A DNA stretch of 64,000 nt, from the NCBI GenBank assembly GCA_030765185.1, contig JAVCDE010000026.1, positions 17,276-81,275 of the forward strand, in the 5' to 3' direction. Of the stretch, positions 1-39,371 are shown piece after piece. The position numbers were made by a program, and so were the translations under genes. The notes beneath the pieces were generated by a model, which saw only the letters and a list, made by a program, of their open reading frames with translations, had not been told where the DNA came from and made no database searches. Position 1 is the first letter of the stretch. Every line of letters starts with the position of its first letter. The DNA is from Candidatus Aceula meridiana. Lineage in GTDB: Bacteria > Omnitrophota > Gorgyraeia > Zapsychrales > Aceulaceae.

Positions 1-3000
1 GTAGAAAAACAACTTACTCTTTTAGACCAACTCGAAGCGATAAGGCGTCATATCTCAAGAACACTGGGTGAAGAGGTTGCTCTTAATCAGATCTTCAGCC
101 AGGTTGTTATTCCAGACTTATCTGCTAAGGCACGTGAATCTTTAAGAAATGACCCAGAGGGAAGCAGGGTTGAGATAAAAAGTAAAGCATTAGCTGAAAA
201 ATTAAGAAAAGCACTTGAGAAGGGTGAGGCACAAGTAAGCAAATACTTAGAAGGCGCACAGCCAGAGGTAACTGCGGAACATATTCAAATTTTGGAGTCT
301 CAAGGGATAGAAGTTCTTAAGGTTCCTGAAGACAAGATAACAGGAATTGATAAGAGAAAGCCTCTCTACGACAATGATTACTTAGCAACGCTTCTGCTTA
401 ATGTTGGGAAGATAACTGTGAAGAATACAGCGTCTTCCGGAAGTTTAATCAAAAAATCAACAACGCTGCTAACAACAAAGGAATTGAAGCGAATCGATAG
501 AAAGTATAAAGAAATTCTTGCTGTCTATAACGAGAAGGGCGAATTTCATGGCAACAAGAAGAGAGGGGAAATTTATAGCGAGGCAGGTAATTTTGTCAAA
601 ATAGCTGATGTTATTGCGTTCGGATCCAATGGTTTTGTTTTGCAGAGGAGAAGTAAGCCGCAATCTCCCGCAACATTGTCTGTCCACGGAGGGCATGTAG
701 AGCTTGGAGATTGTCCTGTTGAGGCCGCCGTCAGAGAAGTAGAGGAAGAAATCGGCATAGCGATAGACCCTTCTAGGTTGATCCAGGTGGGAGAAGGCGA
801 CTTGATGTTTAAGATGCTTGAAAATGATGCAGTAGAAAATCCTCATATTGATGAACAAGGGCGATATATTTCCAACTCGGGAGTGAAGGGAAGAATTGTT
901 AATCGATTTATGGCCGTTTATGTTTTATTTATGACGCGAGAAGAAATAGAGAAAGCAAAGCAATATGTCGCAAGTAGAAAGGCTAAAAATCTCAGCGATG
1001 TCGATGTCCGCAACGAAGTCAGTGAGATCGTTGAGAAGAATATAGAGGAGCTCATTGAGGATGTAGCGATTTCTCCAGCGGAGTATGCTACAGGTATTCG
1101 GTATTATTTAACGTGGCAGAGATCGTTAAGTCTTATTCAGAAAATCATTAAAGGCACGGAAACAGCAAGATTAATTAAAAAAGATATAAATTGTGATATT
1201 GCAAGACAAGCTGGAGAAGCGGAAGAGGCGTCCTCAAATATTTTATGTATATGCAATTCTAATTTTAATCGTAGTCCAGCGATAGAGCTAGTATTTGATT
1301 ATTTAATTAAAACAGCAGGCATGATTGACAAGCTGTTAGTTGATTCAGGGGCAGTAGAGCAGGAAAGCAAATTTGGCTGGGGAGGTGTTAACGAAACACT
1401 TGCTGATGCTTTTAGAGCGCAATTTAATGTTGAACCAAAGAGGATACTATCAGAACCGCTATCTTTAGAACAGATAAGAGAAGCCCATATTATTGTTATA
1501 GCAACAAATAAAATTAGACAGAAAGTACAGGGTAGATTTGCTGGTGAGTTAGGGAAGAAGAAGATATTTGTTATGGAAGAGCTAGAACAGCAGATGGACA
1601 TTGTTGAATTCAGAAATAGTCCAAACGATGATGCGTCAATTTTATTTAAATATTGCCAGATTATTGATGCGATGATTTGGCCTTTGATCATTCAGTCGCA
1701 GCAGAAACCAGGGGTATTGTCAAATGAAGATCTTGCGATAAAGGTTAAGCGCGATCGTTTATTATTGTATTTGAAGAAAACACCGTTAAAGGAGGAATTA
1801 GCTGTTTCTGAATTATCAAAAAGATTTGATATTCATGAAAATGTGATAAGAGCAATGATTCGCGAGAATTTTAAGTATCCAGAGAGCTCAGACTCTTATT
1901 TGGATGTACTGACTGAGGGTGGCAAATCAACAGATAAGGTTAAATTATTTACTGCTATCCATAGGGATGGGGATTGGCATTTAGGGATACAGGTTATACT
2001 GATAACTTCTGAAGGAGAATTCGTATTATTCAAACGCCCTAGCGGGAAATTTGGGTTTATTGGTGGACATGTTGATGTTGGAGAGGAATCAAAAGTAGCA
2101 GGAATACGAGAAACGATAGAAGAAACTTCGCTTACGGTTGTTGATCAAAAAAGGATCATTCGTGTTGGAAGATTTAAAAAGGAAGGAATTCTTGGTATCG
2201 CGGGAATTAAGCTTAATGATTTCTCAGAATTTCCAACAGTTAATATTTCGCTTAAGGGTACGGAAAAGAATGTCGATCTTGAGGATATTTATGTTTATAT
2301 GCTGAACAGAAAAGAATATAGACAATTGCAGAAGATGGCTGATGAACAAGATGCTTTGAAAGTTAGTGAAGGGGAGCTTTCTGGATTAACAACCGAGTCT
2401 TTTGAAGAAATAAGCGATGGGCTGCAGCATAGAGCTGAAAGATATTCTATTGGCAGTCAGATGGTTTTTAAGGTTGCTTCTATAAAGAAAGGTTTAAAAG
2501 ATATAGCAGGGGCACTTGTTCAGAAGGAAATTATTAATAAAGATAGAAAATCAAACGAAGATTTCTCATCGTCAATTAATAATTTAGAGAAAAATTCCGT
2601 AGGATATACAAGATTAATGCAGAAGTTCTGGTCTTTGTTTACTAATAGCATTAAGGACGGGATTTCTAAGGAAGATCTAGCCTTCTTTAAAACAAGACGT
2701 AATCTAGAAACAGGTAAGTTGATTAATATATATTGTGCTTCTTATTCTTTTTGGATTGATGCAAAAACAGAAATTGGTATTAAATTATCAGATTTCCAGA
2801 AAAAGATGATGAAGGTGCTTCCAGCTGATTTGCAAAATAAGATAGTCTTATTTAAAAATTTTCATATAACGATTGCGGTGCCACTACGCGACATAGATAG
2901 TCCTTATTCAGAAGAAACAATTAATTTTATTGCTAATGATTTAGATGGGATTGCCTCAGAAGTAAAGAGTACTGAGTTTGACATCGTAGGATTAAATGCA

Positions 3001-6000
3001 TTTCCGGGAGGCATCTTATTTGCTCAAGCTTATCCTGTTTATGATAATAATGGAGAATTTGAATTGGATAAATTCGAAGAGGCAGTGAACCAGAGAAGCC
3101 CGCATGCTTTGCATTACGAGTCAAATGTCTTTCACATAACGCTTGGTTTCTTAAAAGATAAATTAACACCCAAGCAATCAGCAGAATTTGTTGATTCTTT
3201 AGCTAAATTGCGCACTTCTCCGATAGGTAAATTAAGAGTAACCGAAATGCAGCTTGATTATTACAACAATTTACTTATTCCGGAAAAAATATTAAAGAAA
3301 TATTCGTTATCGTCATCAGGTATTAGAGAAAACAGCAAAAACTTCAAACCGTTTGAGAAAATCACGGAAGACGCAGTAACGATTGATGTCCTTTATCAAA
3401 GACCGGGTCAAAACTTTCAGCAAGTGCCCCAGGTAAAAATACCTTCTTATAAGGATACTAAGAATGGGAAATTATCGTCAGCTACTGAAGCTCTAGGCAG
3501 AGAAGGATATTCAAGAGATGAAGAATTCTTAACACAGAAAAGCAAGAACGCGGAGTCGACAGAGGAAAGATCCAGGCAAGAGCCGTTGTCTTCATCTCGA
3601 GGCAATTCACCGGTTGAGTCTGCGCCGAATATGCCTATCTCAACACCGGTTAAAATCAATGCGCCTATAACGCCGATACTGCTTATGCCATCTGTGGTAT
3701 CTAGCGCAGCATTCTTGTTGAGCCGAAACGCAAAGAACGGTAAAGCAGATATGCCGATAGGCATTTTAGGAAATGGTCTTGCCGAATGGTTCGCTGAAAA
3801 TAATAACAGTGCACCAAACGTAATCAGAAATAAAAATATTGATAAAAACGAGCCGTTGTCAGTTGCTTTTTCCTCCCGTGGCGGGATATTAAGCAGATTT
3901 AAAAAGACAGCGGCTCTTCTATTTATACGGGCGGCTCTTCTTTCTATAGAAAAGCTAGCACAAAAGCCGTTGTCAGTTGCTTTTTCCTCCCGTGGCGGGA
4001 TATTAAGCAGCTTTAAAAAGACAACGGCTTTTTTATTTATAAGGGCGACTCTTCTTTTCATAGAAAAGTTAGCACAAAAGCCGCTGTCAAGACAGCTCTC
4101 CTCCCGTGGCGGGAACGAGCTTGAGGCAGCGGCATCTTCTATTGTTCAAAAAACAATCATTGTTGCCTCAATCATCCTTTCTTTAATCTTCTTGACCCCG
4201 ACTGCAACGCCAGCACAGGCACAAACAGAAAGCTATTCTATCGAAAACGTTGACTATTTAACTGAAGCAGATGAACAAAAACTTTCTGTGGCTATTAGCG
4301 AAATAGGGTATCCGCAAGATTTTCAAGAATTTTATGCTGCTGGCTTTGAGCAAGTTCTTGCCGATATCGATGCTTATGAATTAGGTCGTAGATGGCAAGA
4401 GTCTGATATCGATGGCTATAAAGATATTATGAAAGATTTCCGAAAGCGCATGCGCAAGAATGATTACTTCCAAAGAACCTATCCTTTAAGCAATAAGCCT
4501 CGCAATCCGTTTGTACAAAAATGGGCAAATGCTTTGCGTCTAGAGGAAGGACATATCTTTGATGTTGTCAAAGCCACTGAACTCGGGCGTGTAGACCAGA
4601 CTGAACAATTTAAAGATTATCGACTTCATAGATGGCAGAATCATGTTCTCTATTTTATGTTGAAAGTGTGGGGCATCGACTTTGATGTCGTAGCAACAGA
4701 GAAATATTATGTTTACCTTATTGAGCGAGATCGAACAAAAGATACTCTTGCCCCAGAGCTAACGCATCTTTATCTTGATGGCTACGAGGGGGTTTTAGGC
4801 GCAGTGAACCTAGAAGACGAAGTCTATACTCTTAAGGGGCAGCAATGGATAAGCGATATTACTGTTTCAAAAAAGACCTTTTGCGAGAATACAGCCATGC
4901 TTGCTACGCCACCACTTAGAGGTTTCTTTTTTACTCCATATTATTTTCATTATGGCCAGAACGAATCTGACTTCTTAAAAGCAGACATGTATTTCGGTTA
5001 TGCGTTTGCTTATCTTAATGCTGAGAAATATAGTAAAGGAATTGAATATCTTACTCGAGGACTTAGACTAAATCCGTTTGTCAAAGATCGGTGGATTGAG
5101 CTTGCACGTATTTATCGATATTTAGCATGGCTAAAGACGAGAGGAAAATATCAAACTCAAGAGTCCTCAGAGTCTTTATATAAAAAAGCTGCTGCAGCTT
5201 ATAACGAAGCCATTGAGCTTGATCCATATGACTTAACAAAAGTTTTTGAATTAGCAGAAGACGTTTATTTAGAAATAGGGGAGATTGAAAAAGCAGAAGA
5301 ATGTTTTGCTAAAGCGATCATGCTCGATATGCGCGTTAAATATCGGATGGAGCGGTTAGTTAAAAAAGCGGAGAAAGATCAAAAGAAAAAAGACCAAAAG
5401 GTGAATAATAAGGCTTCATCGAATAATGAAACAAAGTTAAATCTACTTCAAGCTTTCATTAATAGCGAGGATGTTTCAAAGTTCCTCCCTCTCAAGCTTC
5501 GAAACATTGAACAAAGAAGTAACAGCGGCATCATCTCCAGCGCCTGTGAATCGCTTTCTTTGGCAATTTCAAAAGAAAAAAATAAATCTTCATCGAATTC
5601 AATTTTAAAAACTGATGTTATAATAAATTTAAACACGTCAAGCTGGGGAGATTTACCAGACCGTCTTACCTCGTCCGTGGCTGGTGGGGGGCGGTTTACC
5701 CCGGCTTGGCGTGTTTCTTCTTCAGCGGCCTCAAGTGCGCAAAACGCTAGAAAATTCAACAAAGAACTTGAGATTTTTTGGGATATTTATCAAGCACTTA
5801 TTAGAGCTGCACTAAAAACGAATAATCATATTTTGACCCGCCAAGAGATACGAGGATTTATTAACCATTATATCCTTGTTATCGATAAGGACAGAGACCT
5901 TGCTTCTGAATTTCTAAAAATTTTAGATATTATGGATTTTCGCCCGCCTCAGCTGTGGGATGCCTATCCGCCGGCTTGCCCTAAGGTTGAAAAACGTTTT

Positions 6001-9000
6001 TATGAATCTTTAATTATCAGGAATCCAGCGCCCTTTGTGGAAAAAGGAAAGTTAGATTTTAGCGCGGTCCTTGATTTACCTGAAGGAAGAAAAATTAGCC
6101 AGGATGAATATCATTTTCTTTCAAAGCTTCGTGGTGAAAGAAACAGCCTTTTGGTGGATCCTATTTTTATTGTTGCCCGCATTGAAAGACAGTGGGCGCT
6201 CTATAATCTGCAAGGCATGATTTGCAAGGAGGTTTTTAAAGAAAATCAAAAGACGGGAACTTTTAAAATTTTGCGAAACTCAAGATTTTTAAACGTTTTC
6301 GATACATGTTATTTTAAAAATCAGAACAGCCATCTGAATTTTGAGGCTTTACCAAATCTTTTTAGTTCGGGACAAGAAGTTCATCAAGAGATTTTCTTAT
6401 CAATGCGAAAACACCATCAGAAAGAGCTATCGTTCACTGAACTTTTATCTAATTATTTCTTAAAACCTTTTATTTTATCTCAAATTTATTTGTTTAGAAA
6501 CATTTTTGATATTCCCATTAAGCCAAAAAAGAAGATGGAAAAAGCCCTAAAAGAAATCAAGGCATCTTCAAATGCAAAAAACAACAAGATTTTTTCTCCA
6601 AAAGATATTATTCAAGCAATTAAGGAAACTGAAGAAGTTCTTCGGGAGATTTCTCGTTTTAAGGCGGTAAGGATTTCAGAGCCTAGGGCTTTTGGACTCT
6701 TAGGAGCAAAACTTAAAAGTGCAGGCCTTCAGACGGCATTGACCTTACAGATTCTCACAACTTATAGAGAAGACATCGAAAATAGCAAGAGGACGCCTAC
6801 TCAAAGCTTCTTTAAACGCATTCAATCTTTAAAATTTCGGGCTCAACATGAACTACAGTGGCGTGAAGGAAAGATAGATGACGCTTTTGAGTCCTTGCTT
6901 AGCGCTTTAGCTCTAGCTGTTGAAGTAGAAACACAGGAAGTTGTTGATGAGATGTTTCAAGAACTTCTAAATAAAATTATTGTTGAGGGCAAAGGGCAAA
7001 GCGAGGAGTTGATGCGTAGAAGGACTCAAATATTTTACGACGCTATTATTGCAGGAGAAGATAAAGATTTTAACGAAAAAGTCCTTCTTCGAGCATTAAC
7101 GGATCTAAGAAAGATTATATACACAGCAGCGATTAGTCAAAGCCAGAGTGCGATTAACCGGGTTATTCGGTTTGGACTTGTGCTTTTTATCGCTCAGAAA
7201 GAAATTAACCTTTTTGAAAAGAGCGTTGTCGATTCAAACAACATTGAAATACAAAAAGATGTTGCTGGGGCTTATGAAAACAGCGCCCGCGCTTTAATAG
7301 AGCTTGATGCAGATATCAAAGATCTTCAAAAGGCAGAGCAATATATCCAAAAAGCAGTTAAGTTGCAGCCTGAAGAAGATGCCTATAAATGCTATCTTAA
7401 CAATGTGTATCTTAAGCAGACGATTCACTATATTAACGAAGGGGAGCTTATCAAAGCTGAGAAGGCTTTTGAAAAAGCTGTTGCCGATGATTTAATTGAT
7501 GCCCTTGAGCGTCAAGATCTTGAAACAATCGGTATTGATCTATATTTAGGGGTTATTTATCTTCTTCAGGGAAAATCCATAGCTGAAATCGATGGCACCT
7601 TTGCGGAGGCTTTTGAGGCAACAGATGTTTCTATCTTGCTGAGTTATTCTGAGCGCTTAGAGTCTCGTGAAAAATTTCTGACATATCTTTCTGAAGCCAT
7701 TCAAAGAGATTTGTCCGTTGAAGCAAAAACTGCGATGGCAGAATTCTTAAAGAAAACAAGTTATTCTATAGGAGGAGCGATTATGGCCTTTCGCAAAAAG
7801 ATTAAAAATCTTTTCGCGAAAGGAAAATATGAAGAGGCAAAGGAGCATCTTACGGTTTATTTTAGCTTAGTTAGCCAAGACGCAGCGTTAAAGGATCTTG
7901 GGATAAAGATTGATAAAATTATAACAATATTGGCTAGGGCAAAAATTTCTGAGGGTTCAGAGAATGTGTCAAAGGTATTGGCTGAGTACGAGAAAGTATT
8001 GGCTATTAATCCTGCAGATGAAAATCTTGTTGAGAAGATTGCACAAATTAAAAAGAAAGAAATTGAGAGAATTGCACAGATTAAGGAGCAAGAAGAAAAA
8101 GACCAAAGAGAAGCTAAAAAAATTAATACGATTGGGATGCATTTAAGGAATGCCGGCAATCAGATTGCAGCTAAGAAATTTGACCGTGCTCAAAAGAATC
8201 TAGAAAAAGCTAGAGAGGTAATCGATAGTTTAGAAGAGCCGCAGGAGTCTTTATCTTTGCTATGGAAGAAAATTAGCGATGATCTTACGCGCAACAGAAA
8301 AGCTCCTAAGACAGTAGAGAAAGAGGTTGTAGGCGAGACTGGAAAGAGAAAGAAGCCTAGCCTTATTGTTGCTCCGAGTAACGAAGAAACCAAAACCAAC
8401 AAAGAGGAAACGACTCATCAGAAAATCAACGTTTATGCCATTGGAGCGGTCCGCACCTTATTAAAAGGAAAGGAAGAGCAAGAACAAAAAAGAATTTGGC
8501 AGGCGGTTTATTTCGAGAGAGACTTAAAGCCGGTTGAAGGGGCGAGCTTCAGTCTTTACACTGTCCGGTTTGGTAGTGTAAGAATTTTAATTATTCCACG
8601 AGAGGTAAACAAAAAAAGGAAAAGCTGGATTATTGCCGCAGTTGTTAACCGTGCAATATTAAACAATACAGCTAAATATGGGAAGATTATTTCAAATATC
8701 GGAAAGAGATGGGATGTTTATCAAAAAGATGCACGCCTTATTAAGCCTAAAAAAGACTGGGGATCTTCCTCTGCATCAATAGTTCAGGATAAAATAATTT
8801 GGATAGCAACCTATCAACAGATGGCTTCTTCTTTAGGAAGCGCGCAAATTAAAGATCAAGTTCAGGATATTGATTTTTCTTCTAATTTTTTAAACGCAGA
8901 TTGCCTTCTTTGTCAGTCTCTTGATAAGCAGGGGGCTGTCTTTTTTGCGGTTTGTGATAAAAGGATTATTGGGTATGTTATTTTAAAAGAAACAGGATTT

Positions 9001-12000
9001 ATTCCTCGCATCGCTGTCCATGAAGATTTTCATAGGCAGCATGTTGGAGCACAACTTTTTGAGTCCTGCAAAAAAAGAGCTTTAGAGCAAGGGATAAGAT
9101 CTCTTTTTCTGGATTTTTATAATCTAAACAACGCGTGTGGAAAAAGAAGAAAAGCTTTTTTTGAATCTTTAGGGATGAGCATATCCTCACTTAGTAAAAA
9201 GCAGTATCTTTTTCGGGCAAAGTATGAATTAAAGATTTCTTCAGGTGCACGTCTTATTAATCCTAAGAAAGCCTGGGTGTCTTCTGCAGCTAAAGCGCGT
9301 TCTCTACCCTTAGGAAGAAAAAGCTCAAGCTCTATATACCTTATAAACCTTTTAGGCGTAAGCCATGATACTTTGGCAAACACAGAGAATTTCTGGAACA
9401 AGATTGTTACGCTTCTCAAAGAGGACGGGGTCGCACCTGAGAAAATTAGTATTCTTAACAATTTATATGAACATATAAAAGGTTTTTATCAAGCTGATGA
9501 CATTATCTCGCACGGATATCATTGTTTATTGCATAGCTTAGAGGTTGCAGTAGATGGCTACATCGCTGGAAAAAATAAAGGTTATACTAAAGAAGAAAGA
9601 TTAGAACTTCTTGTAAGCGGGATTTTGCACGATCTTGACCCTCGCAACGGAGTCTTTAGAATTCCTAGGGTTGTAAACACAGTTGCATTTTTAGAGAGTG
9701 ACAAAATTATTCAAGGATACATCGAAGACTTAGAATTATCTTTTGAGAAAGTTATTATCAATATTCTTCGCACACATTATCCTTGGAAAGAGGGTGCGCC
9801 ACTTAAATTTATTCAAAGACTTAACAAGAGTATTAAGGGAGACGAAAAAAGAAGTCGGCAAAAAGAGATTGCTGAAACTTTGGCTCTTATAGACAAAGTT
9901 GCGGTTTACGCGCGACTTAATCCTTTGGTCGCTGAATATCGCGTGCGTCAATTAGCTAAAGAAACAAAATGCAATGCGGATGAGTTGGTTAAAAATACAT
10001 TGTTATTTTTAGAAAAAGAAATGAAAGATTTTGATGCAATGTTAGGCAATTTTTTACCATCAGAATTCACAAAGAATTTTGGTAAAACGAAAGCACATTT
10101 TGAGAAAAGAAGAGAAGAGCTATCCTCTTCAACGATTCGGCCTTCCAAAAGTTTTTCAGTTCCTAAAGCCAATTTCAAAAGGGTTGTTAAAAAAGCACAG
10201 ACTGTCTCATCTACCATTAAGGTTAAAGTTGATGAACAAGTCTCAAAGAGAGCAGAAACTCTTCATCTAGAAAAGACTTTGCACGAGGCGATTAAGCATA
10301 TTGAAGATTCTACTGGAACAATTATTCAATTAGGCTGGAAGCATTTGAATCTAGGCCTTTCCAAGAAAATAATAAAAATGGTTAGCATGCGTCAGCTTCT
10401 TTATAATCAGTATAATTTTTTACATTTTGTTTTGCCAGATGATTCTATTTGTTTGATTGAAATGGTTAACGTTCATGCTGATTGGTGGGATCATCAATGG
10501 AGGAAAAGCTTGAAGTGTTCTATTGAGCGTGCCTTAAAGCCTTTTATTGAGGATCAAAAAGGCAAGGATCAAAAAGGAAAAGAAAGACCTGTGGATATAC
10601 TAGAAGAGTTTGTGAAACAAAATCTTGAGAATATGAGCCTTGTAAATCTTAAAAACAGTCGTAGGCCTTTTGTGGTAGTTAATTTTCCTGTTGATTCTAT
10701 AGTTTCGCTAAAGAAGCTTCTTGCGAAAGATGGCGTGAGATTTCAGGACGCTGAAGATGATGATCAATTTGATGTTTGTTCGAAAGAAAGGCCTCACTGT
10801 CGTGTCGGAATCGATAGAGGCAAAAAGACAGTAATTTTTTCGCCTTCATTCTTTAAGGGTAAATCGGCGCCTTTCGATGTTTGGTTTACTACTAACTTGA
10901 TAAACGAATTTCTAGAAAAAAAGAAAGCCGTAGAAAAGAAAGAAAAATCTTTTCCAGGAAAAGGAAAGGCGTCGTCCACCGCCTTTCGAGCAGAAAAAAC
11001 AGAAAGCAAGGACAGGATTAATTTAGAGGACGTGGTTTTAAAAGATTATTTAAAGAACCATTCTAAAACCGAATTAAAGAAGGTCTTACAAGAGATAAAT
11101 TATGAGGCTTATATGGATTGGGAATTATTAATCACTGATTGGATTGAGGAAGAAGATGCGGCAGTAGACTACGGGGAAGGCAGTATTGTTTTTGCGCGGA
11201 AAAATGGAAAAGAGGTGGGATATTTTTTAAGACGAGGAAATAAATTTTCTTTTATGGCTGTCCGAGAAAATGAACGTGGCAATCGTATTGGGCCGGACAT
11301 GTTTATTTATGCATTGAACAAAGCAAAAGCCGATGGTTTTTCTATCGTTACATTTGATGTTGAATACACCAATGAGGAGCAATTACGGTCACTTGATCGA
11401 CTAAAGAAAGAAAAGAAGATATCTTTTCAAAAACAATATTTTTCTCGGGTTTTCATCTACACCGCTCGCCTTGTTTCCTCCTCAGCCAAGAGTAAAAAAG
11501 GCAAAGTGTCGTCTATTAAAGCTTGTGCAAGCTCATTAATTTTAACAGAACAAGATCTAAGGTTATCAAGGCAGCATGGACTTGGTATTCGTTACGTTAG
11601 CCCTGTTGGCGGAGAAATTGTTGAGGAAAATAAGCGCGTTGTTAATATTCTAAATCGTGAATATCCAAATTATCTTGATGAAAAGATTAATTTTATTGTT
11701 TTAACAGAGCAAAGAGCTAAAAAGTTTTCTTTAGATTCTAAAGAAATTAGAGTTGCTTTTAGTGGTCACCCGTCTCATGGCAGACAGCTATTTTATCCAT
11801 TAAGAAATAAGATAGATGATATTTATTTATATTTAGGCGCTAAGGGATGTGGTGATTTAGTTTCTAAATGCTTAACGCATTCTATCTCAAGATACAGGAA
11901 CAATGGACTAGCTTATTTAGATGATTTTCAGAATGCACAAGTTTTTACGGATATTCTTAGAATGAAAGGTGCTCGCGTTCCTTTGCATGTCGCGGCATGT

Positions 12001-15000
12001 AAGTTAGATTACATTCTTGATCAAGACGGAAATGTTATAGAAATTTCTGATGATATGCGCGCTTCTACTGCAGATCATCAAGTCGGATTTCAAAGAAAGC
12101 CAAGCCTGCATTTTATTCTTTATGATTATTACGATAGGTTGGGGTACTTAACGTATGCTGTAAAAAAAGATCCAGGGCTTTTAAAAATAAGAAAACAACT
12201 TGGGAATTTATCACAAGAACAATATTTTCTTCATATAATCAAAGAATTGGCTTATACAGAGGCTAAAAAAGTAGAACTAGGGGTCACAAAAGTTTCTTTT
12301 CATGAAAATGATATTACACTTTCTGGAATGGAAGTAGATTGGGATGAAGCTTCTTATGTAAAGGATATTGCTTTTGGTGATCCTTATTCACGTTTAACAA
12401 AAAATATGGAGGAAAAGAAATTTTATAGAAAATATGGATTTCTTTTGTTTGACTATAGAAGAAAATTAGAAATCTTGCAGAGATTTCAAATTTCATTAAC
12501 AGAACACGCTTTATTCAAAATTTCGAATATAAATGTGCAGCAAGAATTTTATCGTACGTTTTTAGATAGTTTAAGTTTAGATATGCGCCGCAGGGTTATC
12601 GCTGCGACTTCATCAAATATTAAAATAAAAACTGCTACAAGCGACGATATTCCATTCATTTTATCTCAATTCAGAAAAAGAATTAAGTCGTGGAGTCAAG
12701 TAAAGATGAATTATAAAAAGGATAATTCTAAGAATTTTTTCAGCTCACCATTAGCATTGAGTAATATACGAAGCGTTTTTTATTCGGTGAAAGAGATTTT
12801 TGGTGAAAAAATGCCCTGTAAAGAACAAAATCGACCAATGTTGCCTTTTGATTCAAAAAGTCTGCCTATTCTTTTTTCTGTTAGCCCCATTGTTTTAGTG
12901 CCGCTGATACTTGTTTCCGGTGTCAGCGTTGCTGTGATGGCAAAAAGTGCATTAAGTATTGCTATTATTTTTGGTATTCTTGGTTTTATTGTGTTACTTC
13001 GAGAATGGTTTGCTCAAATGAGGGCTGCACCAAATTCAAAAGAAATTTTATATGTTATGGTCTTAAATGAGCCGCTGATGCACAAATCGCCTTCCCGTGG
13101 CGGGGAGATTTCGTCAGCGGCTCATTTGTTTGCAAGGGCTTTTTCTGCAGCTTCTTCAGCCGTATCTGCTCCAAGAGCTTCTTCTACTGCTAAGCTGAAG
13201 AAAAAGAAAAACACTTTTGACTATCATTGCTTTTTTGATGTTTTAGGTATGCCAAAGTATTTTCAAGAAAATCCAGAGTCGTACAATATCATTAATTATA
13301 TGAATTACACCATTCAAGCGCTGCGTACGCCAGAGAATTTTAAAGGTAAAGTTGCTAGAATCCTTTCTTTATTGAATAGAACTTCAGAGGAATCTTTGGG
13401 TTATCTTGAGTCTGTGGCTAAGGATATTTATGCGCCTTTAGCTAATCGCGTTGGTTTTTTAGAAATTGCTGAACAGATCAAAGATTCTATTTTTAAAGCC
13501 CGTTTTCCAGATTTATGGCTTAAGTCTGAGCGTCAGATTCTTCAGGCTTTAGGAGGTATAAGCCGCGAGGAAGCAAACCGTTATCTTTTAGAAGTTAGTA
13601 ATAAGATTAAATCAAGGTTAAAGGAATTGGGTGTTGAGGTTGAAGCGGTTTATTTGAGAGTTAAAGGGGCGAGCTCTGGCTATGAAAAGGTTAAAAACAA
13701 AAGGGGCGACAAGACTTCGTATAATAAAATTGCAAGATTGCAAGATTTATTTGGTCTTCATATTATTTTAAAAAATAATGATGATTACTGGAAAGTTGCC
13801 GGACTTTTATTAGGCTGGGACAGTACTATGGCTCCATATCAAGATCTAGGAGGCGAGTTAGACGTGCAACAAACAGAAGAAAAAAGGCGCTTTAAAGGTG
13901 ATAAGTATGATGCGTATCATTTTGGCATTAAGATTCCTGTGTCTCCCAAGGCTAAAGAAAAAAGAAAATTTGTTATGATGGAGATAAAACTTTTTGATCC
14001 TGATAAGTATCTATATTTTCGATATAGTCAAGAAATTGCCGCATGGATTTATGAGCTAACCCGGCGTTATCCGAATCAAGAATTTCTTTCAGGTGGCCTA
14101 ACCCTAATGTCAAGTGATCCGGAGAAAAACTTTAAAAATCTTTATTTTTATTTTAAGAATTGGATTTATTTTTTCTTTGTTCAGGACAATAATCTTGACG
14201 ATTGCTGCATTTTAAAACCTGCAGGACTTAAAAAAGGCGTTATTATGGCAGATGTTTTGGGCTTGCTCGGAGTTGATGAGTTTTTGGCTCTTACGCAGAG
14301 TGAGCCTGTTTTACGGGAAGGTATGAATCAAAAGGATCATGCACTGCTTTCTGGTTTTAGTTTTGGACAAATGATTCGAAAAAATCAGGATCCAGATGTA
14401 AAGAAATTTAATAAGACCGTCATCCAAGAGCTTAGGGTGGGAGATTTTCTTCAGGTTGATCCTATGAGAAGGGCAGAATTTACTGATCAAGAAAAAAAGA
14501 AAATAAGTGAAAAAGCAAGACATTTAAGGACTCTCCTAAGACTCCAGCTTAAACCTGGAGATTTTTATAACATGTCTTTCCCGAGTAATGAGAGGCAGAA
14601 AAAAGCGACTCTTGGCATAATAAAGTTAACCAAGGCAGGCGAGGACAGAGTAGTGTACAAGTTTTTATTTAGAGATGAAATTGCGCAAGCCGTAGGTTTT
14701 AATGATGGGATTTATATGTGTGCTGTTTTTGGTCTTTGTGAAGTCTCTATAACGACTGAAGTTGCTAAGCAGGCGATTGAGGGAAAACCATGGCTTATGT
14801 CTAGGGTTGTAACCATTAAGGCAAAGGGTGGACAAGCTAAGAAGACTTTCGTGGAGCTGACGTTAAGCCTTGATTATGATTATTCTGAATTAATGAAAGC
14901 TGTTGTTAGCGTTGTTGCTCAAGTTGGAGCCGAGATTTTCGACAGTCAATATTTTGGAAAAAAAGTTAAGATGACGATATCGATTCTTGAAGAAAATATT

Positions 15001-18000
15001 CTAAAATTAAAAGATCTTTTAGGGAAAATTAAAGCATTGGATAAAGAAGCTAAGATTATGGATGAGAATTTTTTGAAAAAAGAAATACACATTCTTGCGA
15101 ATCTTAACAAGGACTATCAAAGTTTTTCTGTTACGCTTAATAGCATTTTATCTGTATTTGAAACTTTAAAGATTTATGTTTATGAAAATGTTAGTAGCTG
15201 GCAACCGAAAGATGAGAGATTAACGCCTAAAAAAGAAACTCCATTTCTTGTTCCGCTAAGAAGACTTCGCAAGCTAGACGACAAAGTTGTTTTGTATGAA
15301 TTTGTAATTGGAATACCGGCTACTTCAGAAGAGAAAATTTTGATAGAAAAACTTCAGCAAGTAACAAATGGCGGAGTTGTTGAAATTGTAGAGGCTTCGT
15401 CAGCGATTTCGTCTTTAGCGTTTTTTGACTTTATTCCGCAAGATGAGGATGCTGAGACGAAAAACGCGCGTCCAATAATCATTATGGAAGACGACGATAA
15501 AGAAACAACTAGGGTGATGTTGAACATATGGTTTTTTGATCGTGAGAATTTTGATGCCATGATGGAAACGTTTAAAGGAACAATGAAGGCTAAAAAGTCG
15601 GGGGTTATAAATATTAGCCTTGATCAAGAATTATCGAGACTTCATAAGATGCAGCGGAATATCCAGCGGCTGGAACGAATAAAAAAGACTATGGATCCGA
15701 ATGCGGGGAGCCTAGAATTTTTCGATAGTACTGTTGGTCTTGGACAAATTAGAATTAATAGGCTTAGAGGGGGAGCATCGTACGAAATAACAATCAGAAA
15801 AGACGATAAATTAGGGTATGTTTTAGTTTGCAAGGAGCAAGAGGGTGCTGAAGAAGTTATTATTGTAGGTCTGAAATCGACCTTGTCTCCGGGAATGACA
15901 ACCTTACCTCTTTTAGGGCGAGGCAAGACTTTTGGGGAGGCGGCTAAAAATGCGCATTCAGTCCTGACGGCAGACCAAGAGCTGGACAGAGAAATGTATG
16001 ATGTAATGATGCATATATGGTTTAAGGCTCGGAAAAGGTTTGGGCGTATGCTTAAGATCTTCAAGGTCAAGATCAGAACGAATGGCGCAGGGGAGATAAC
16101 CTTGAGTATTGGCGGGCATCGAATAGCCATCGGAAAATTAAAAAAGAACACTTTTTATACAGTAACTCTAAGGCGAGATGCTCATTTTGGATATATTTTG
16201 GTGTTGAGGACGAAAACGGGAGAGACGGCTATCGTAAAGTTAAATGTGTCATTGACGAAGAACACATATCTTTCTTCTTTGGGGCGGGGGAAAACTTTAG
16301 GGAAGGCTATGGAGAGGGTACAACAGAAATATCCAAAATCTGCGCACTCTCTTTCAAAGGGCAAGTTGAGAAAAGTCGAAATAAGGGATCTAGTCAAATT
16401 CGTTCAGGCTGGATTTGAGCCAGGGGAAGAATTGAGTTGCGCATACGAATATGAACGAGTATTGAGCTGTGGATTTCTGATGGATACCTATCGCGTAAAG
16501 GAGGGGAAGTTGGCTTCTCGTTTAAAAGAAACGATTGTTGCCGAAGCTCCTCCAGGCATACAAAAAGCACTTGATGCTTTTGAAGCTGTCTATGGGAAGG
16601 AAGTTTCTTCCGTACCGTTTACCCACGAAGGTCAAGATTATATTTTTATCAATTCTTTGTGTGACCTATCTTTTACCCAACTCTGTGAAGCCATTATTTA
16701 CGATACCTGCACTCTGGCAGGAATGTATCATTCGGGTGCTAGCCTGAAATCTCAAAATTTGATGTATGGGCATAAAAATGAAGATGAGAAAAACAGGGTT
16801 TATTTAAAGGCTATGTATAGTGTTTTGACTAACTATCAGGAAAAGGCTGATGTTATTGTTGATGATTTTTATGTGGAGGCAGAAACTGACAGTCTTGGGA
16901 TAATAGAGGTTTTTACACAGGGAACCACATTGCAGATTTGTGCCCCCAAAAGGGATACTGTCTATGAAATAACGCTTAGGGACGATAAACGATTAGGATA
17001 TGTCTTGATTTTGAAGGCGAAAGACGGTGCCCAAGAGTTTGTTATAGTCGGGATGAGACGCAATCTTAACAAAATATCAACAACCTTCCCGATCTTAGGA
17101 CAGGAGCCAACCCTTGAGGAGGCTCTTGAGAACGCAGATTTGACGATTATTGAGGAGCAAGAAGAGAGAGGTGAGATTCGGACAATGCTGAACACATGGT
17201 TCTTTTTTGATCGTGAGAAATTTGATGCCATGATGGAAACATTTAAAGGAACAATAAAGGCTAAAAGGTCGGGTTGTATTGATATTAATGTTGATCGAAA
17301 ATTATCGATGCTCAGTAAAGCGATGTGGAATGCTTGGAGGTTAAATGGAATAAGGGAAAAGATTGATTCAGCTGCCCAAAGAATAGAATTTTTGGATAGT
17401 ACTATTCGGCTGGGAAACATTAGAATTAATGGGCTCAAAGGGGGTGCCTCGTATGAAATAACTATTAGAAAAGACCGTCGATTAGGGTATGTTTTGGTTT
17501 TCACCGAACAAGATGAGGCCCCAGAAGTTATTGTCATTGGGATGAAAGAGGTAATAAGTACGAAAAAGACAACATTGCCTATTTTAGGACGAGGCAAGAG
17601 TTTTGATGATGCGATAGCAACCGCGCAGCCGGTATTAACGGCAGGCCAAGAGCTGGATTGGGAAATGTATGAAGTAATGCTAAATATATGGTTTAAGGCT
17701 CGGAAAAGGTTTGGGCGTATGCTTAAGATCTTCAAGGTCAAGATCAGAACGAATGGCGCAGGGGAGATAACCTCGAGTATTGGCGGTCATCAAATAGCCA
17801 TCGGAAAATTAGGAAAGAACACTTTCTATACAGTAACTTTAAGGCAAGATGCTCATCTTGGATATATTTTGGTATTGAAATCGGAAAGAGGAGAGACGGT
17901 AATCGCAAAATTAAACGAGTCATTGACGGAGAATACATCCTTATCTCTTGGGGGGAGGGGAAAAAGTTATTCAGAAGCCTTGGATAACGCCTTGGCGAAG

Positions 18001-21000
18001 GGGATTATTGAGGGGGTAGTAAAAACAATAATGAATGAAGGAAGAATAAAGCAACATTTAAAAGCTTATGGAGAGAAAGGAAGTCTTAGCCAAAAAGATT
18101 ATTTGGAATTAATTCAAGAGGTAAAGGGAATGAATTTTTCAGCTATTTTATTATTGAACAGTATCTTTTTAGGGAATCTTAGTGATGAAGTGCAAGAGCG
18201 GGTTATTATTCGAAAGTTATTTCGTTATCGAGCAGAAAAACATGGTCTTTTTGAGGCGTATATGAGAAATGCGATTGCCATTTCGGAATCTTTTTATAAA
18301 AAAACAATGCAAAGGTTTTCTGAGGATATTCCTGAAGATAGAAATAAATTTCTTATTGTGGAGGAGGATCTAGGCTCTTTCGTATTTGATTGGCTACAAA
18401 TTGCCAAGAGATTGCGCGGGATAAGTGAAGAAGAGAGAGCGTTATTGATCAAGTCAATCCAAAGCATAGACGCTGAATTTTTTGATGTTGAAGAATTTCT
18501 TAGCAATGGAGTTGATAAAAGAACTTTGATTCTCTTCGGAGAAGCTCTCCAGGAAGAGGGTTCGGAGGATTATCCTCTTGTCACATCTTCGGCAGTGACG
18601 GGCAGGAAAAACATTTCCTCCTCAGCCAAGAGTAAAGAGGAAAAAGCGTCGTCCACCGCAGAAGGTTTGCCTAACTTGACAAAAGGACAGTTTAGAAAGT
18701 TTGCTCAAAGATTTATAAGGTCGCAACCTTGGGATACGAGAAGTAAGTATAAAAGCTCTCTTTTTGAATACGGAGATTTATCAGATTTTGAAAATCTTGT
18801 GGAGACTGATTATCTTAAGCATCCTGCCGAGACTAATTTGAGTGGGAAGTATTTTTGCTTTGAAGATTATAAGATTTTTAGCCTTGGCCAGTCTCAGATA
18901 GGATTTCTAAGGAATGCTACAAATTTTTTAATTTTTATGCCTGAATTTACCGGATGTAAATGTTTATCGCTTCATTGCTTGGATAAGAAGCCTAGCATTT
19001 ATGCTACACATTTAGGCAGCACTTTTGATTGGAAGCGATTTTTTGAATATTTTGTTAATCTTTCAACTGATCAAAAGGAAAATATGAAGTGTTGGAGTTT
19101 ATTTTGGGAGCATCCTTTTTCTGAGAAGAGCATGGAATATCTTATTAGGATTAATAAAGAGTTGCCGCAACAGATTTTTGATATTAAAAAGAAATATAAG
19201 CACTCTTCATTATTTTTTTCTCGTCAATTTTCTTTTTTAATTCATTTTGATTATATCGCCATGTTGTCGAACAGAAGGGTTGAGAAAGTTCTTGCGCTTC
19301 CTTCGCAGCGGTCTTTTCGTCCTGATCTATTGCAAAATTTCTTCTCTTTGATTCAGCAACGGTATCCTCTTATCCCATCTCGGAGGGAAGTTGTTGATGG
19401 GATTAAGGGCATTGCGCCAACAGTCTTCCAAAAACAAGTCATCTCCTCAGCAGTAACCTCATCGGCGGTAGCGACAATGGTAGCAGACGTATCCGCGGCA
19501 ATAGCGCCTATTGCCTCGATGTGGGCGCCTATTATCGTTTTTAGCTCAATAGGTGGATTATTGCGATTTGCAATAGCTAAGCATATTGACAAGTATTTTA
19601 AAGGAATTTTTCCTTATGGCACGCTGGGCGTGAATTTATTAGGTTCCTTGATGATGGGATTTATAGTCGGAGGCGTTGAAGTTATTGGTGATATTCCTGC
19701 GTGGCTTATCGGCGGATTTCTAGGCGCTTTTACAACTTTCTCAACATTTATTTTTGATATTGAAACTTTAAGAAAAAGTGGAAAATATCGAAGTCTTGCG
19801 GGATACACTCTTTTAAGCATTTTAGGAGGTTATTTTGTATTTATTTTTGGGTATTTCGCAGGGTCTTTTGGTTTAAACACGAATATGAAAATCATTTTTG
19901 TTTCATTGATCATTATTCCTCTTTTTGCTTTTCTTGCCTTTAAAAATTCAGAAAATAAAATTCCATCTTTGCGAAAAATCCCTTCCTTTGTTTCCGGGCG
20001 AGAGACTCTTTATTTGTCGATAGGAGTTACGCTTGGGGTTGTTTCAAGGATGCTTTTTCCAGGCCAAACACTTTTTGTCAATATTCTCGGATCCTTTTTA
20101 ATTGGCGCGGCTGATTTTGGCTTAGGCGATGCATCGAAAAAAAGAAAACTTCTGCTTATTACTGGTTTTTGCGGAACACTGACAACCTTTTCAGGGTTTA
20201 TTTTAAAAACTCATGGTTATTTAGCCGCGATAACGCCTTTTGAGGCAGCCGCATATATATTGGCGAGTGTCGGTTTAGGGTATTTATTTTTAAAAATTGG
20301 GGAAAAATTTAGTGCTTTTCTGCTTGGAAATAAAAAAGATACAGGATACAAAGGGCAAAATAGGAAAAAAAAGGAGGAGGTTTCTTCGGCAACCCAACCC
20401 CATGGAGCCTTAGGCGAACATTCTTCAAAGCCTTGGCGAAGAATGGATAAAAATCTTACCGCAAAGGAAAGTTCTTCCTCGACACAGCCCAAAACGTCTA
20501 AAAATGTGGCAGAGACAAAAAAAGAATATAAATTCTTTTCCCGTTTTAAAAATGGCAAGGTTATTGAAATTGAAGATTATTATGGTGCTCCAGCCGAAGA
20601 GGCTCAGGCTATAGATTTAAGAAAAGCGGTTGAGGACGCAAACCTATCTTATGCTAATGCTGACGACCCGGACGATTTATCGACTGATGATTATTTTAAA
20701 GATATCAACTTGCAGGCAGCTGAAGACATTCAGTGGTTGATTTTTGGAGGGGCTTTTAACGGGTGTCTGAAAGATGTTATGGAAAGAATCTTGCATTGTG
20801 ATGAAGTTTTTTCTGATGAATCGACATTGCGGATCACATTGCCGCTTTTTGCTATTAAGAAGCTCTATAGCCTTCAAGTGAGCAAGTACACATATGATGT
20901 TCGTAATTATCTCAACCCTGAGAGGATTCCCGAAAGAATCGCCGAATACTCTAAAGAAGGATTAGGGGTTTTAACAACAGGCCAGGAGGATGTAATCAGC

Positions 21001-24000
21001 CCTGGCTATCATTATTTTATGTTACCATACAACTCTAATTATAAAATCATCATCCGAAAAGATGGAAAAGTTTTGCGAACCATCAAGGAAGATGGTGCTC
21101 CGATAGTGATTCTTGACTTCTTTACGTCTCTTGACTCCATGAGAACTCACGCCTTTAGGCCAGTTGCCTCTTCCTCGTCTGCCAGCAAAACTATTTTACC
21201 AGCTAACAAGGGCGGATTAGAGTTGCTACGCAAGATGATACTCGATGTTTTGAACGAAAAAGGTCAGGTCAGATTGGCAATCGATGGTGGAGTCGCAGTT
21301 GGTAAGAAGTTTTTGGTCGCAGCCATTCTAGAGGGAAAATTAGGCTTGACTCGTGATGAAATTTGTATTGCTCTCTTTAATAAGTATGCTTTCAAAAGAC
21401 TAAAGGATGGTAGAGATCTCTCTAGCAAGAAATTGTTAATATTCCCTGGACACTTCTCTAGCCGTTTGTCCGATGTTGATATTAAGGTCCATTTGGTTAC
21501 TGACGGTACCACGCAGCGGTCTGATATAGTACTTAGAGGTCAGGACCTTAGCGATTACCCAGAGCTTATGAATTTTCATTCATTAGTTTTAAATGAGCTA
21601 GAAAAGAAAGAATTTGACCTAACAATCGATAATAGCCAACGGTATCGGATGCCTTTTAAGCAGATGGTAGAGCTGTTTAGCGAGCCGCGCACAAATGGAG
21701 CCTTAGGCGAATATCCTTCGAAATCTTGCCGAAGAGCGGATAAAAATCTTATCACAAAGGGAAGTGCTTCCTCGGCACAGCCCAAAACGCCTAAAAATGT
21801 GGTGGTTACTAAGCGTGAAAAGGATGACTTGAGAGATATGAAGCTCTTTAAAAGATTTTATGACGGGGATGATGATGCCTTAGGCGAGTTCTTTGAAATT
21901 CGTAGACCTTATTTTATGGGATTTTTGATAAAATGCAAACCTGGGGCTATTTCCCGCGATGACGCTGAAGATATTTACCACGATGTTTTTATCAAGGTGT
22001 TTGATAGAGAACGTACACCTTTTAAGGGAGAAGACAAGCCGAGGATTTGGATAAGAACCATTTTACGAAATGCACTTTTTGATCGCATGAAACAAAAAAA
22101 GAGCAAGAGAACAGTTCCCCTTGACCTCAAAACGTTAGAGAATTTTCTCACCCTGTCAGGTGTATTTACACCGGAAGATTGGAAGAGTAGAGAAAAAATG
22201 CGTTTGTTGATACAGAGGAGGATTAGTCAACTACCAGCGACGTATAAAAATTATTTTCTTGCCCACCATTACGATGGTTTTAAGTATAGGGAAATTGCAA
22301 AGAAGGAAGGTGTTGCGGAAGGCACCGCTAAGAGTACTGTCCATAAGGCACTTTTTTACATGATAAAGGTGTTGGCGCCGGATATAAGAGAAGATCCGAA
22401 ATTGTTGGAGTATTGCCGGGAGCACTTGAAGGATTCTCTCAAAAAGGTTCTTGGAGCAGTTGTAGTTGCGGTTTTAAGTGGCGGACTATTGGCATATGGT
22501 ATGTGTAATAATGCCGGAATGACAGAAGGGGTTGTATGCGCTTTTATCCTGCCGTTTTTCACCTACGCAAGTTATTCTAAGTTGTTAAAGACAATACATG
22601 CGTTATTCGAGGATATAAAAAGGTGCATTTCTTCATTCTTTGTTTCCTTGACCAAGGCGGCAACTTTTATTTTACACATAAGTATTTCTGGCATACGTCT
22701 TGTGTCGGGGGGTTTAAACTTTGGCACGCATTTTGCGTCGGGGGTTTTAAGACCGCTAGCTCAAAAGTATATTTCTTTACGAAAAAAATTCCGATCAAAA
22801 GATAAGCAGGCTAATCAGAGCGGTTGGGGCACAATAGCTGCGAAGGCGTCTTATTTGAAGAAACCATATCAAAATAAATCGCTAGGGAAAAGGGATGATG
22901 CGCCTAACAGTTCTTACTGGAAGAATGGTAGGCGCTATGTAAAAGAAAGAGGTTCTTGGTTTTTTAGCTTTAGCCCGGTGTTATTTTTCTTCAAAGGAGA
23001 AATTTATGCTCTGCTACAGGCCTTAGAGATTCCTTGGCAAGAGATAGGGATGACGGGATTAGTTGTCTTAGGGGTAGTGGTGATAAAGTTTTTTGCTGCA
23101 GAGAAAGGTGTTCGCATTGACACAAAAGAAAACAATAAAAATAAAAATTCTTTAGATATCACGCCGTTATCCAAAAGAAGAAATTTTTTAAAGACTGCGA
23201 CAAATGTTTTTTCTATTTTATTAGTTATCGGACTAGTGTTTTTGATACCGCTTGATGCTGTCTATGCGCAGGGTGTAGCTGACCCTGTTGAGAAGACTTT
23301 TGACCAAGAAAAAGAAATCTTTTATAAAAATTTAAAGCAATCTGCCTTGCCTTTTATCCAGCCGTTTGTTGCAACACAAGAGGACGCCAATAGGTTTGCT
23401 AATGACTTTATCTATGAGGTAGCGGGATGGAAAAGAAGCGACGGGGAACCCATTCTTTACGTCTGGAGCCAGCGGCTTAAGAATGCGCGAAGAGGGGGTC
23501 ATAATAAAGAAGTGGCTCTAGATGAGGTGATCGCCCTTGAGCTTGAAGCCATAAAAGAAATCCGCACCATTATTCACAATCGTTTTTCTCTTCATGACAA
23601 CAGTCAGGATGCGTTTCTTATTCATGAGATTTTATCGACAAATCAGGCCTGTTCTTTAGGCAGGGCACAGATTCTTTTTATCGCGCTTAATGCATTGGAA
23701 ATTCAAACATTAGGGGTCACCATGGAGGATCTTGAGGCAAACTCCCAAGGAGAGCGTGGAACATCTATTGTTGTCTCAGCTCGTTTGGCAGATTCTCGCC
23801 AAGTTTTGATAAACGTTACACTTGATTCGCCGAATTTTTTAAGCGCTGCATGTGCTTTAAGTGAGATATTTATTGCCCATGATTGCGCTGTTGAATTTAA
23901 TCCTCAGTACGCCGGAAGTCAATTTTACAGAAATATTCATATTCTTGGTATGAGAGGGCTTATCTCCGCAGCTCATACAGATTTGGCCGTAAAATATAAT

Positions 24001-24531: not shown

Positions 24532-24860
24532 AAGAGAGCGCACCAACCCTTAGTTAACCCTTTCGGCTTAAGATAACAAAAAAAACGCCAATAACTCGTG
24601 CCCACACCAGCAATGGCTAGTTTGGATTTCTAAGTTATGTCGCAGGTTTCATAGCTTAAACTTTCATTAAAAGGTAGCGCTTTCCCGAAAGCACCCTTAT
24701 CCCCTTACATTCCCCCTATATATGTTCTATACTTATTGTAGATTCTTTTAATTGTAGGATGGTTCTTTGACGATCAGAAAAAGGCAAACTACCCGTAAGG
24801 GTAGGGCGCAAAGTTATAGGGTCCTTTATAGGATAGCCAACTATCAGAAAAATATACACC

Positions 24861-39152: not shown

Positions 39153-39239
39153 TGGTGCTGGAGGAGGGAGTCGAACCCTCATGCCCGCGAAGACACTGGT
39201 TTTTGAGACCAGCGCGTATACCAGTTCCGCCACTCCAGC
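39153..39239 (-). tRNA. tRNA-Leu (anticodon CAA), class II with long variable arm, CCA encoded
   Basis: The reverse complement reads GCTGGAGTGGCGGAACTGGTATACGCGCTGGTCTCAAAAACCAGTGTCTTCGCGGGCATGAGGGTTCGACTCCCTCCTCCAGCACCA. It folds with an acceptor stem, D-arm, anticodon stem CTGGT/ACCAG with loop CTCAAAA, a long variable arm and the T-arm GGTTCGACTCC. Confidence 0.9.
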
Positions 39240-39295: not shown

Positions 39296-39371
39296 TGGTG
39301 GAGCTGGAGGGATTCGAACCCTCGACCCCTTGCATGCCATGCAAGTACTCTCCCAGCTGAGCTACAGCCCC
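39296..39371 (-). tRNA. tRNA-Ala (anticodon GGC), G3:U70 identity pair present, CCA encoded
   Basis: The reverse complement reads GGGGCTGTAGCTCAGCTGGGAGAGTACTTGCATGGCATGCAAGGGGTCGAGGGTTCGAATCCCTCCAGCTCCACCA. The anticodon loop is AUGGCAU and G3 pairs with U70. Confidence 0.9.

Follow-up and report, generated by a model that had tools for sequence, protein, structure and literature searches.

A giant mosaic gene of Candidatus Aceula meridiana carries a RelA/SpoT-like cassette among protein-sized modules joined at Ser-Ser-(Ser/Ala) motifs

The 64,000-nt stretch of Candidatus Aceula meridiana DNA analyzed here, called the window in its whole length (GCA_030765185.1, contig JAVCDE010000026.1, forward-strand positions 17,276 to 81,275), opens inside a single giant open reading frame (ORF). 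The region at 590-15060, in which an initial annotation had seen a nucleotide-alarmone theme composed of two Nudix domains, a 2H domain, an HD domain and a RelA/SpoT homologue (RSH) synthetase with an ACT-like module, is the first two thirds of this native chromosomal giant mosaic gene. The giant ORF is probably a mosaic gene of the type found in Omnitrophota and the Planctomycetes-Verrucomicrobia-Chlamydiae (PVC) group, made up of functionally independent cassettes. Approximately 20-25 protein-sized cassettes are joined in frame via Ser-Ser-(Ser/Ala), some of the junctions with RNA hairpins, and are shuffled between giant genes of different genomes; most likely, each cassette would act as its own enzyme and not as part of a wired alarmone circuit.

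The giant ORF (1..24531, plus strand) has at least 8,176 codons, its 5′ end lying off the left edge of the window and its stop codon at 24529-24531, and region 590-15060 lies wholly within it, in frame 1. Over these 24.5 kb, frame 1 contained no stops, compared to 338-803 stops in each of the other five frames; base composition predicts about 600 for frame 1, and the probability of finding zero is approximately 1e-272. Codon usage of the giant ORF correlated with that of the downstream genes (r = 0.95), and GC content at third codon positions was 0.33 vs 0.35. Those downstream genes are chromosomal and of Gram-negative type, including a U32 family gene, ComM, YkuD, AccA, RlmN, BirA and BioF/A/D, followed by MnmA, PGI, a PilB/C/M/N/Q set and an amidase; the type IV pilus genes for PilB, PilC, PilM/N and the secretin are located at 48.8-61 kb. 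Thus, the absence of stops, the native codon usage and the housekeeping neighbors together indicate that the giant gene is native, and the claim of a single chain holds, frame 1 running without a stop over nt 1-24528. Neither phage nor conjugation genes were found among the neighbors of the giant ORF in the window, and a phage polyvalent protein was ruled out by the chromosomal housekeeping neighbors and native codon usage.

The RSH cassette (13192..15396, plus strand) encodes 735 aa and is bounded by Ser-Ser junctions at aa 4394 and aa 5133. The block-by-block alignment with RelA that had been proposed for nt 13222-14000 turned out to be right and also understated, since the segment was confirmed to be the equivalent of a complete long-RSH protein except for the hydrolase N-terminal half. 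Its parts, all on the plus strand, are a residual C-terminal half of the HD domain (~13192-13560), the synthetase (~13560-14090), the TGS domain (~14150-14480), a helical region (~14485-14736) and ACT-like domains (~14743-15393). The Pfam RelA_SpoT model (PF04607) gave 23.5 bits, under its gathering threshold (GA) of 27, and the NCBIfam model TIGR00691 (spoT_relA) matched with an E-value of 8.5e-12. When the segment was compared with PDB sequences by single-sequence phmmer, only Rel/RelA chains were returned (E 1.3e-3), and a family profile made from the cassette and 11 relatives matched Bacillus subtilis Rel (6yxa) with an E-value of 4.8e-40 over Rel residues 101-537. This profile alignment begins at Rel residue ~101, so that of the HD domain just the C-terminal half is retained, and the N-terminal half that bears the hydrolase metal site is absent.

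An AlphaFold2 model built on the same alignment, with a predicted local distance difference test score (pLDDT) of 71.8, led to the same family. In Foldseek, full-length SpoT (7qpr) matched with an E-value of 3e-12 over 685 aligned columns, and the order of matches ran from full-length SpoT, Rel and RelA to small alarmone synthetases and then to tandem-ACT proteins. The C-terminus is modeled as beta-alpha-beta repeats and its tail matches are the tandem-ACT proteins, which supports the ACT-like C-terminus suggested by the initial annotation. A word-based homologue search with the cassette gave no result, and a metagenome scan with the pattern YAPLAxRxG returned ordinary Rel/SpoT genes only.

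The catalytic residues, on which the enzymatic reading of the region had been made to depend, are partly kept and partly substituted. The synthetase keeps R4553, K4555, K4563, D4582 (nt 13744-13746), Y4636, H4640 and E4661 (nt 13981-13983), aligned with RelSeq R241, K243, K251, D264, Y308, H312 and E323, respectively, and in the Nudix boxes described below the REUXEE glutamates are intact. On the other side, R269 is replaced by His, Q325 by Lys and IRT by LFD, so that EVQIRT reads EIKLFD, and the hydrolase half of the RSH is missing. The consensus of the wider subfamily at this place is EFQFxT. All of these RelSeq positions, kept and substituted, belong to what we take to be the synthetase catalytic motifs. 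Compared with its closest DNA relative, locus L002, the cassette had a ratio of nonsynonymous to synonymous substitution rates (dN/dS) of 0.46 overall with a dS of 0.51, ranging from 0.22-0.37 in the first 400 codons to 0.56-0.93 toward the C-terminus and the linker. These values indicate moderate purifying selection. Judged from its sequence, the cassette would be a hydrolase-less RelA-style pyrophosphokinase homologue, working as an enzyme or as a sensor.

When 1.84 billion representatives were searched exhaustively with HMMER, 57 relatives of the RSH cassette were obtained. The best of them, P0001, is a protein of 4,759 aa with 45% identity across the whole unit. Many of the relatives sit inside proteins of 1,000-8,000 aa, and the weak tail of the search consists of ordinary Rel/SpoT proteins of 700-750 aa. 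The cassette belongs to a divergent long-RSH subfamily found mostly inside very long proteins. Locus L002 comes from a metagenome-assembled genome labeled as uncultured Planctomycetales; it is 63% identical over the RSH cassette, and all of its 22,154 nt form one stop-free frame. Besides the RSH cassette, the giant proteins of the window and L002 have only a short low-complexity stretch and TPRs in common. In L002, Pfam placed WD40 before the RSH cassette and GDPD after it; Nudix, HD, 2H and sigma domains were not detected. At the DNA level, window positions 13151-15375 are 78.6% identical to L002 positions 9960-12142, in giant ORFs that are otherwise unrelated, which suggests either a recent exchange of the cassette or a very fast rearrangement of giant genes. 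In P0001, which is encoded at locus L083, the RSH cassette is found amid starch-synthase glycosyltransferase family 5 (GT5), GT1, two NUDIX domains, radical SAM and DUF1152. L083 (GCA_028693815.1, JAQUUP010000018.1) also contains a 7,858-aa giant gene at 14380-24279, directly 3′ of P0001, with weak matches to HD, Response_reg and TPR, giant genes thus standing in tandem there.

The borders between cassettes are marked by a short peptide, SS[SA]. It occurs at 33 sites in the giant ORF vs an expected 6.3 +/- 2.9, roughly a five-fold enrichment, and none of 2,000 shuffles reached 33. The sites include aa 856, 1104, 2922, 3094, 3375, 3826, 4394, 5133, 6206, 6482, 6795, 7057 and 7257, and the residue that follows is often Ala or hydrophobic. 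None of the 33 sites falls inside an annotated domain envelope, such envelopes covering 26.5% of the residues, and the pieces between junctions have normal protein sizes, about 170-1,060 aa. The motif is encoded by six different Ser codons, which indicates that the constraint is on the peptide. Enrichment was also observed in L002 (z 7.4), P0001 (5.6), P0004 (6.2) and P0020 (4.7, where it has the form SSSP[VI]), and it was absent from 9,357 residues of ordinary window proteins (z 0.4) and from more distant giants. The motif stands on both sides of the RSH cassette in all three chains that carry the whole cassette (the window, L002 and P0001), and in P0004 it stands at the cassette start. We regard SS[SA] as a candidate cleavage or linker signal. 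The DNA of the linkers is itself repeated inside the giant ORF, at 20402-20509 vs 21695-21802 (87%) and 11474-11513 vs 18614-18653 (88%), and these near-identical linkers stand 5′ of unrelated modules.

Two other explanations for the junctions were tried and rejected. Reassignment of a former stop codon to the junction Ser is out, given the six different Ser codons and the normal ends of the downstream genes. Internal translation starts at the modules were not supported: a motif resembling a Shine-Dalgarno sequence preceded only 14 of 136 in-frame ATGs, and these did not track the module starts.

Some junctions also carry RNA hairpins. Hairpins of the short type lie in frame at module junctions; three stand in tandem at 3848-3918, 3962-4032 and 4078-4135 with the apical decamer CCGTGGCGGG and folding z scores of -3 to -6, and a further one at 13064..13128 (z -4.9) is directly upstream of the RSH cassette, all on the plus strand. 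L083 has two (3191-3250 and 6959-7018), with one likewise located just upstream of its RSH cassette. Common to the short type are the apical decamer CCGTGGCKGG and the outer stem AGCCGnUGUCA/UGACAnCGGCU, together with A-rich 5′ flanks and U-rich tails as in intrinsic terminators. The tandem hairpins are borne by a 114-nt tandem repeat (3851-3964 vs 3965-4078). The decamer has five exact copies in the window, all on the sense strand of the giant ORF, and is translated in two frames (..SRGG.. and ..SVAGG..), the frame of the long-type hairpin differing from that of the short type; this indicates a constraint on the nucleotides.

The long-type hairpin (5633..5715, plus strand) is ~83 nt in length and has an invariant 24-nt core, TTACCTCGTCCGTGGCTGGTGGGG, at 5666-5689. 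The giant ORFs of the window, L002 (hairpin at 18045-18127) and L083 (20970-21052) share this core without a single difference, with unrelated flanks. The predicted folding energy is -46 kcal/mol (z -4.8), the sense strand has a z of about -5 in all three genomes vs -2 for the opposite strand, and compensatory changes were found at 13 of 28 pairs across the three genomes. No Rfam family matched the hairpins, the core had no match in viral contigs, and a by-eye comparison with integron attC core sites gave no match. A simple terminator scan misses the hairpins because of their complex loops. Former terminators, attenuators, processing sites, pause sites and recombination joints are all candidates for their role.

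The membrane topology of the chain bears on whether it could work uncut. Downstream of the RSH cassette there is a fused double CrcB/Fluc unit (19459..20382, plus strand; Pfam, and TIGR00494 at 90 bits, above its 80.45 cut-off), followed by an extracytoplasmic function (ECF) sigma factor with regions 2 and 4 (21877..22353, plus strand; TIGR02937 at 60.8 bits, above the 42.9 cut-off). By hydropathy, the CrcB unit has four transmembrane (TM) helices, a linker helix at aa 6631-6647 and four more, nine in all. We take this to be the layout of the eukaryotic FEX channels, in which the linker helix presumably inverts the second repeat; to our knowledge, a single-chain fluoride channel of this layout is unusual for bacteria. 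By hydropathy, the stretches that separate the CrcB unit from the Rel-like cassette on one side and from the sigma factor on the other contain no further hydrophobic segment. Nine helices place the two flanks of the CrcB unit on opposite sides of the membrane, and since a pyrophosphokinase and a sigma factor both need the cytoplasm, the predicted placement of the RSH and sigma modules argues against an uncut functional chain. The same predicted map argues that the channel and sigma modules could not both work in such a chain.

A mosaic of independent cassettes could be used by the cell in two ways. The cassettes could work as beads on a membrane-anchored chain, or they could be released at the junctions; for the Rel-like unit, the CrcB pair and the sigma factor, we favor the latter. 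Processing at the junctions would make the presence of sigma, channel and ribosome-type RSH modules on one chain understandable. Taken to its full extent, release would make the giant ORF a bacterial polyprotein of some 20-25 cellular proteins set free at the SS[SA] junctions, among them a RelA-like enzyme, Nudix hydrolases, a FEX-like fluoride channel and an ECF sigma factor. The CCGUGGCKGG hairpins of the mRNA would then serve at some junctions as processing, pausing or attenuation signals, and recombination at the junctions would carry cassettes from one giant gene to another. We put this full version forward tentatively, as possible and somewhat doubtful.

The remaining domains show how varied the chain is; all are on the plus strand. 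The first Nudix domain (601..1020, Pfam) has its box, GHVELGDCPVEAAVREVEEEIGI, at 691-759, intact save for the first Glu, which is Asp. The second (1990..2400, Pfam) has its box, GHVDVGEESKVAGIRETIEETSL, at 2065-2133, in which REtiEE is kept and the final Gly is Ser; in both, it is the REUXEE glutamates of GX5EX7REUXEEXGU that are intact. With 67.6 bits over the two stretches vs a GA of 21.1, and with two near-intact boxes, the double Nudix assignment was borne out. Between them lies a domain similar to low-molecular-weight (LMW) phosphatases and ArsC (1240..1584), just under threshold in Pfam (21.1 bits, GA 23.2), with CX5R(S) at 1252-1275. The 2H (LigT/ThpR-like) phosphoesterase cassette (2760..3309) is flanked by SSS junctions at aa 856 and aa 1104, and its two HxT motifs are HITIA at nt 2863-2871 (aa 955) and HITLG at nt 3133-3141 (aa 1045). 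The claim of a 2H enzyme stands at threshold level (LigT_PEase 25.6 bits vs GA 23.3, no single stretch passing alone). A word-based homologue search with the whole Nudix-phosphatase-Nudix-2H block was without result.

Further along are a TPR block (4987..5328, Pfam), a RimI-like GNAT acetyltransferase domain (8875..9207, Pfam and NCBIfam) and a second, weak GNAT-like domain (11182..11346, Pfam E 0.003, under GA). The HD assignment has to be kept tentative. The cassette in question (9328..10125) shows the expected H...HD...D pattern within 9511-9981, and its Pfam HD match is under threshold (E 0.012, 16.3 bits, GA 22); word search found no homologue and PDB sequence search no match. Its single-sequence AlphaFold2 model had a pLDDT of 64, and the best Foldseek matches, although from the HD superfamily (PDE5A, SAMHD1 and 3djb), all had E-values of at least 0.15 and were not significant. 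A pair of hydrophobic TM-like segments (12868..13014, hydropathy) precedes the RSH cassette. Beyond the region covered by the alarmone claim, a repeat region with an internal duplication at 1,671-nt spacing (15397..18585) contains a duplicated domain pair (15532-16193 vs 17203-17864, 75-87% identity), and a C-terminal TPR block (24079-24471) stands 3′ of the sigma cassette and of TM segments. The ECF sigma factor and the membrane segments of the initial annotation were thus recovered by Pfam, NCBIfam and hydropathy. About half of the chain is without a detectable homologue, and PDB sequence searches with the unassigned modules gave no match.

Outside the giant gene, a c-di-GMP-I riboswitch (RF01051, 60.8 bits, GA 35) was detected 3′ of its stop codon at 24773-24848 on the plus strand, preceding a 1,381-aa ORF (25018-29163) that has no Pfam domain. 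Two tRNA genes at 39156-39239 and 39299-39371 are on the minus strand in a window that is otherwise almost all plus-strand.

With these domains placed, the alarmone theme can be weighed. The initial annotation had proposed that the enzymes and the ECF sigma factor form a self-contained stress-signaling machine, in which the RSH would make (p)ppGpp or (p)ppApp, the Nudix, HD and 2H domains would degrade or remodel it, and the tethered sigma factor would read it out. All the named domains are indeed on one ORF with mostly intact motifs, P0001 also has NUDIX on its RSH chain, and, as the RSH has no hydrolase half of its own, a hydrolase acting in trans would make sense. However, the association is not conserved in relatives. 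The RSH neighbors differ in L002, and in 17 further RSH-bearing long proteins NUDIX, LigT and sigma-70 were found in none (0/17), while HD_4 was present in 10 and RelA_SpoT in 9; their other domains were idiosyncratic (HAD, AIR synthase-like, guanylate kinase, GNAT, phosphorylase). Within the window, nucleotide-acting modules are 5-6 of the ~20-25 cassettes of a chain that also holds GNATs, an LMW phosphatase, TPR arrays, a fluoride channel pair and many unassigned modules. The modules in question are up to 21 kb apart with unrelated cassettes between them, the Syn4 motif of the RSH is altered, the HD call is under threshold, and the predicted topology would put the RSH and the sigma factor on opposite membrane sides in an uncut chain. 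NUDIX, GNAT and HD are, furthermore, generic contents of giant Omnitrophota proteins (10.1101/2023.11.21.568195; 10.64898/2026.06.07.730766). There is no conserved alarmone theme; it was not shown to exceed chance, and co-residence would be the default outcome in a mosaic chain. We therefore consider the signaling machine unsupported and, as an explanation of this protein, unlikely.

Slightly less probable again is an exported string of effectors in the manner of MARTX toxins, by which a predatory or episymbiotic bacterium would deliver Nudix, GNAT, 2H and toxSAS-like RSH modules to be released by processing in prey or host. In this lineage, predation has been connected with giant ORFs, which stand close to type IV pilus or secretion genes; the shuffling of cassettes and their fast evolution (the overall dN/dS given above) resemble polymorphic toxins, and toxins with the RSH fold and the GNAT fold exist. 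Against this, the RSH is a long ribosome-type protein with TGS and ACT and not a small toxSAS, the fluoride channel pair and the ECF sigma factor with its membrane/TPR partner are self-directed housekeeping functions, and the locus yielded neither a secretion signal nor an autoprocessing protease nor an immunity gene. An assembly chimera or a non-functional, decaying read-through of once separate genes, which the terminator-like hairpins and linker repeats, both reminiscent of former intergenic DNA, and the many modules without detectable homologues might suggest, is very improbable in view of the stop-free length, the intact catalytic motifs, a dN/dS below 1, the native codon usage and the equally long stop-free ORFs with the same cassette in independent genomes.

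The mosaic of independent cassettes thus remains the reading that we prefer, and several points weigh against it. No protease was identified in the chain or adjoining it by Pfam and PDB sequence searches, the TM map comes from a hydropathy heuristic, and the relatives available for comparison were few, amounting to one DNA locus and some dozens of cluster representatives. Functional coupling may exist in this one protein even where co-occurrence is not conserved; P0001 likewise combines NUDIX and the RSH cassette on one chain, and Nudix and HD enzymes can degrade (p)ppGpp.

A junction motif that is specific to giants gives a concrete handle on whether giant ORFs act whole or cut, and together with the hairpins it makes the polyprotein reading testable. 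Surveys of alarmone enzymes will need to take account of the divergent long-RSH subfamily inside very long proteins. When domains occur together on such giant chains, this should not be taken as functional coupling.

Most Omnitrophota classes have been reported to contain giant ORFs that exceed 20 kb, are rich in TM helices and have few annotated domains, and peptides from one giant ORF were detected in V. archaeovorus (Seymour 2023, PMC10066038). The giant proteins described by West-Roberts 2023 contain NUDIX, methyltransferase, glycosyltransferase and peptidase domains and are encoded close to type II/IV secretion genes; the authors asked whether they are cleaved, the cleavage points being unknown (10.1101/2023.11.21.568195). 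Nielsen & Lui 2026 distinguished a 'class 1 multi-enzyme' type and a community of regulatory domains to which GNAT, HAD and HD belong (10.64898/2026.06.07.730766). The giant ORF of the window resembles these in its length, in the diverse Pfam domains on one chain (NUDIX, GNAT, TPR and, tentatively, HD), in its several TM segments, in its poor sequence conservation and in the nearby type IV pilus/secretion genes, and its relative P0001 shows the typical giant-ORF content of GT5, GT1 and radical SAM. It differs in that its content is regulatory and housekeeping (long RSH, double CrcB and ECF sigma) and not of the carbohydrate or adhesion kind, and in that the pilus genes are downstream, whereas they are usually upstream in West-Roberts et al. 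(10.1101/2023.11.21.568195). RelA/SpoT, ppGpp and CrcB are not mentioned in these three papers, nor do they describe the Ser-Ser junction motif or junction hairpins.

In comparison with Rel, RelA and SpoT, the RSH cassette has the same domain order (HD C-half, synthetase, TGS, helical and ACT/RRM-like) and a similar length, and it keeps the Syn1 R-x-K...K, the Syn2 Asp, the Y...H pair and the catalytic Glu. Unlike them, it is without the N-terminal catalytic half of HD, shows the EIKLFD and R269 substitutions given above, scores under the Pfam GA, and is located within a giant ORF, ~60 aa past a TM pair.

The protein-sized in-frame units and the short recurring junction peptides in unstructured linkers are also features of viral and eukaryotic polyproteins and of MARTX-type arrays; here, by contrast, the contents are cellular proteins of housekeeping type on a bacterial chromosome. 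Iyer et al. are said to have described, in 2017, polyvalent proteins of phages and conjugative elements as long chains with unrelated enzymatic domains, including Nudix- and RSH-type ones. The giant ORF differs from such proteins in its chromosomal neighbors and in its membrane channel and sigma modules. It is thus a member of a known, unexplained kind, to which the long-RSH cassette type, the junction motif and the hairpins are new.

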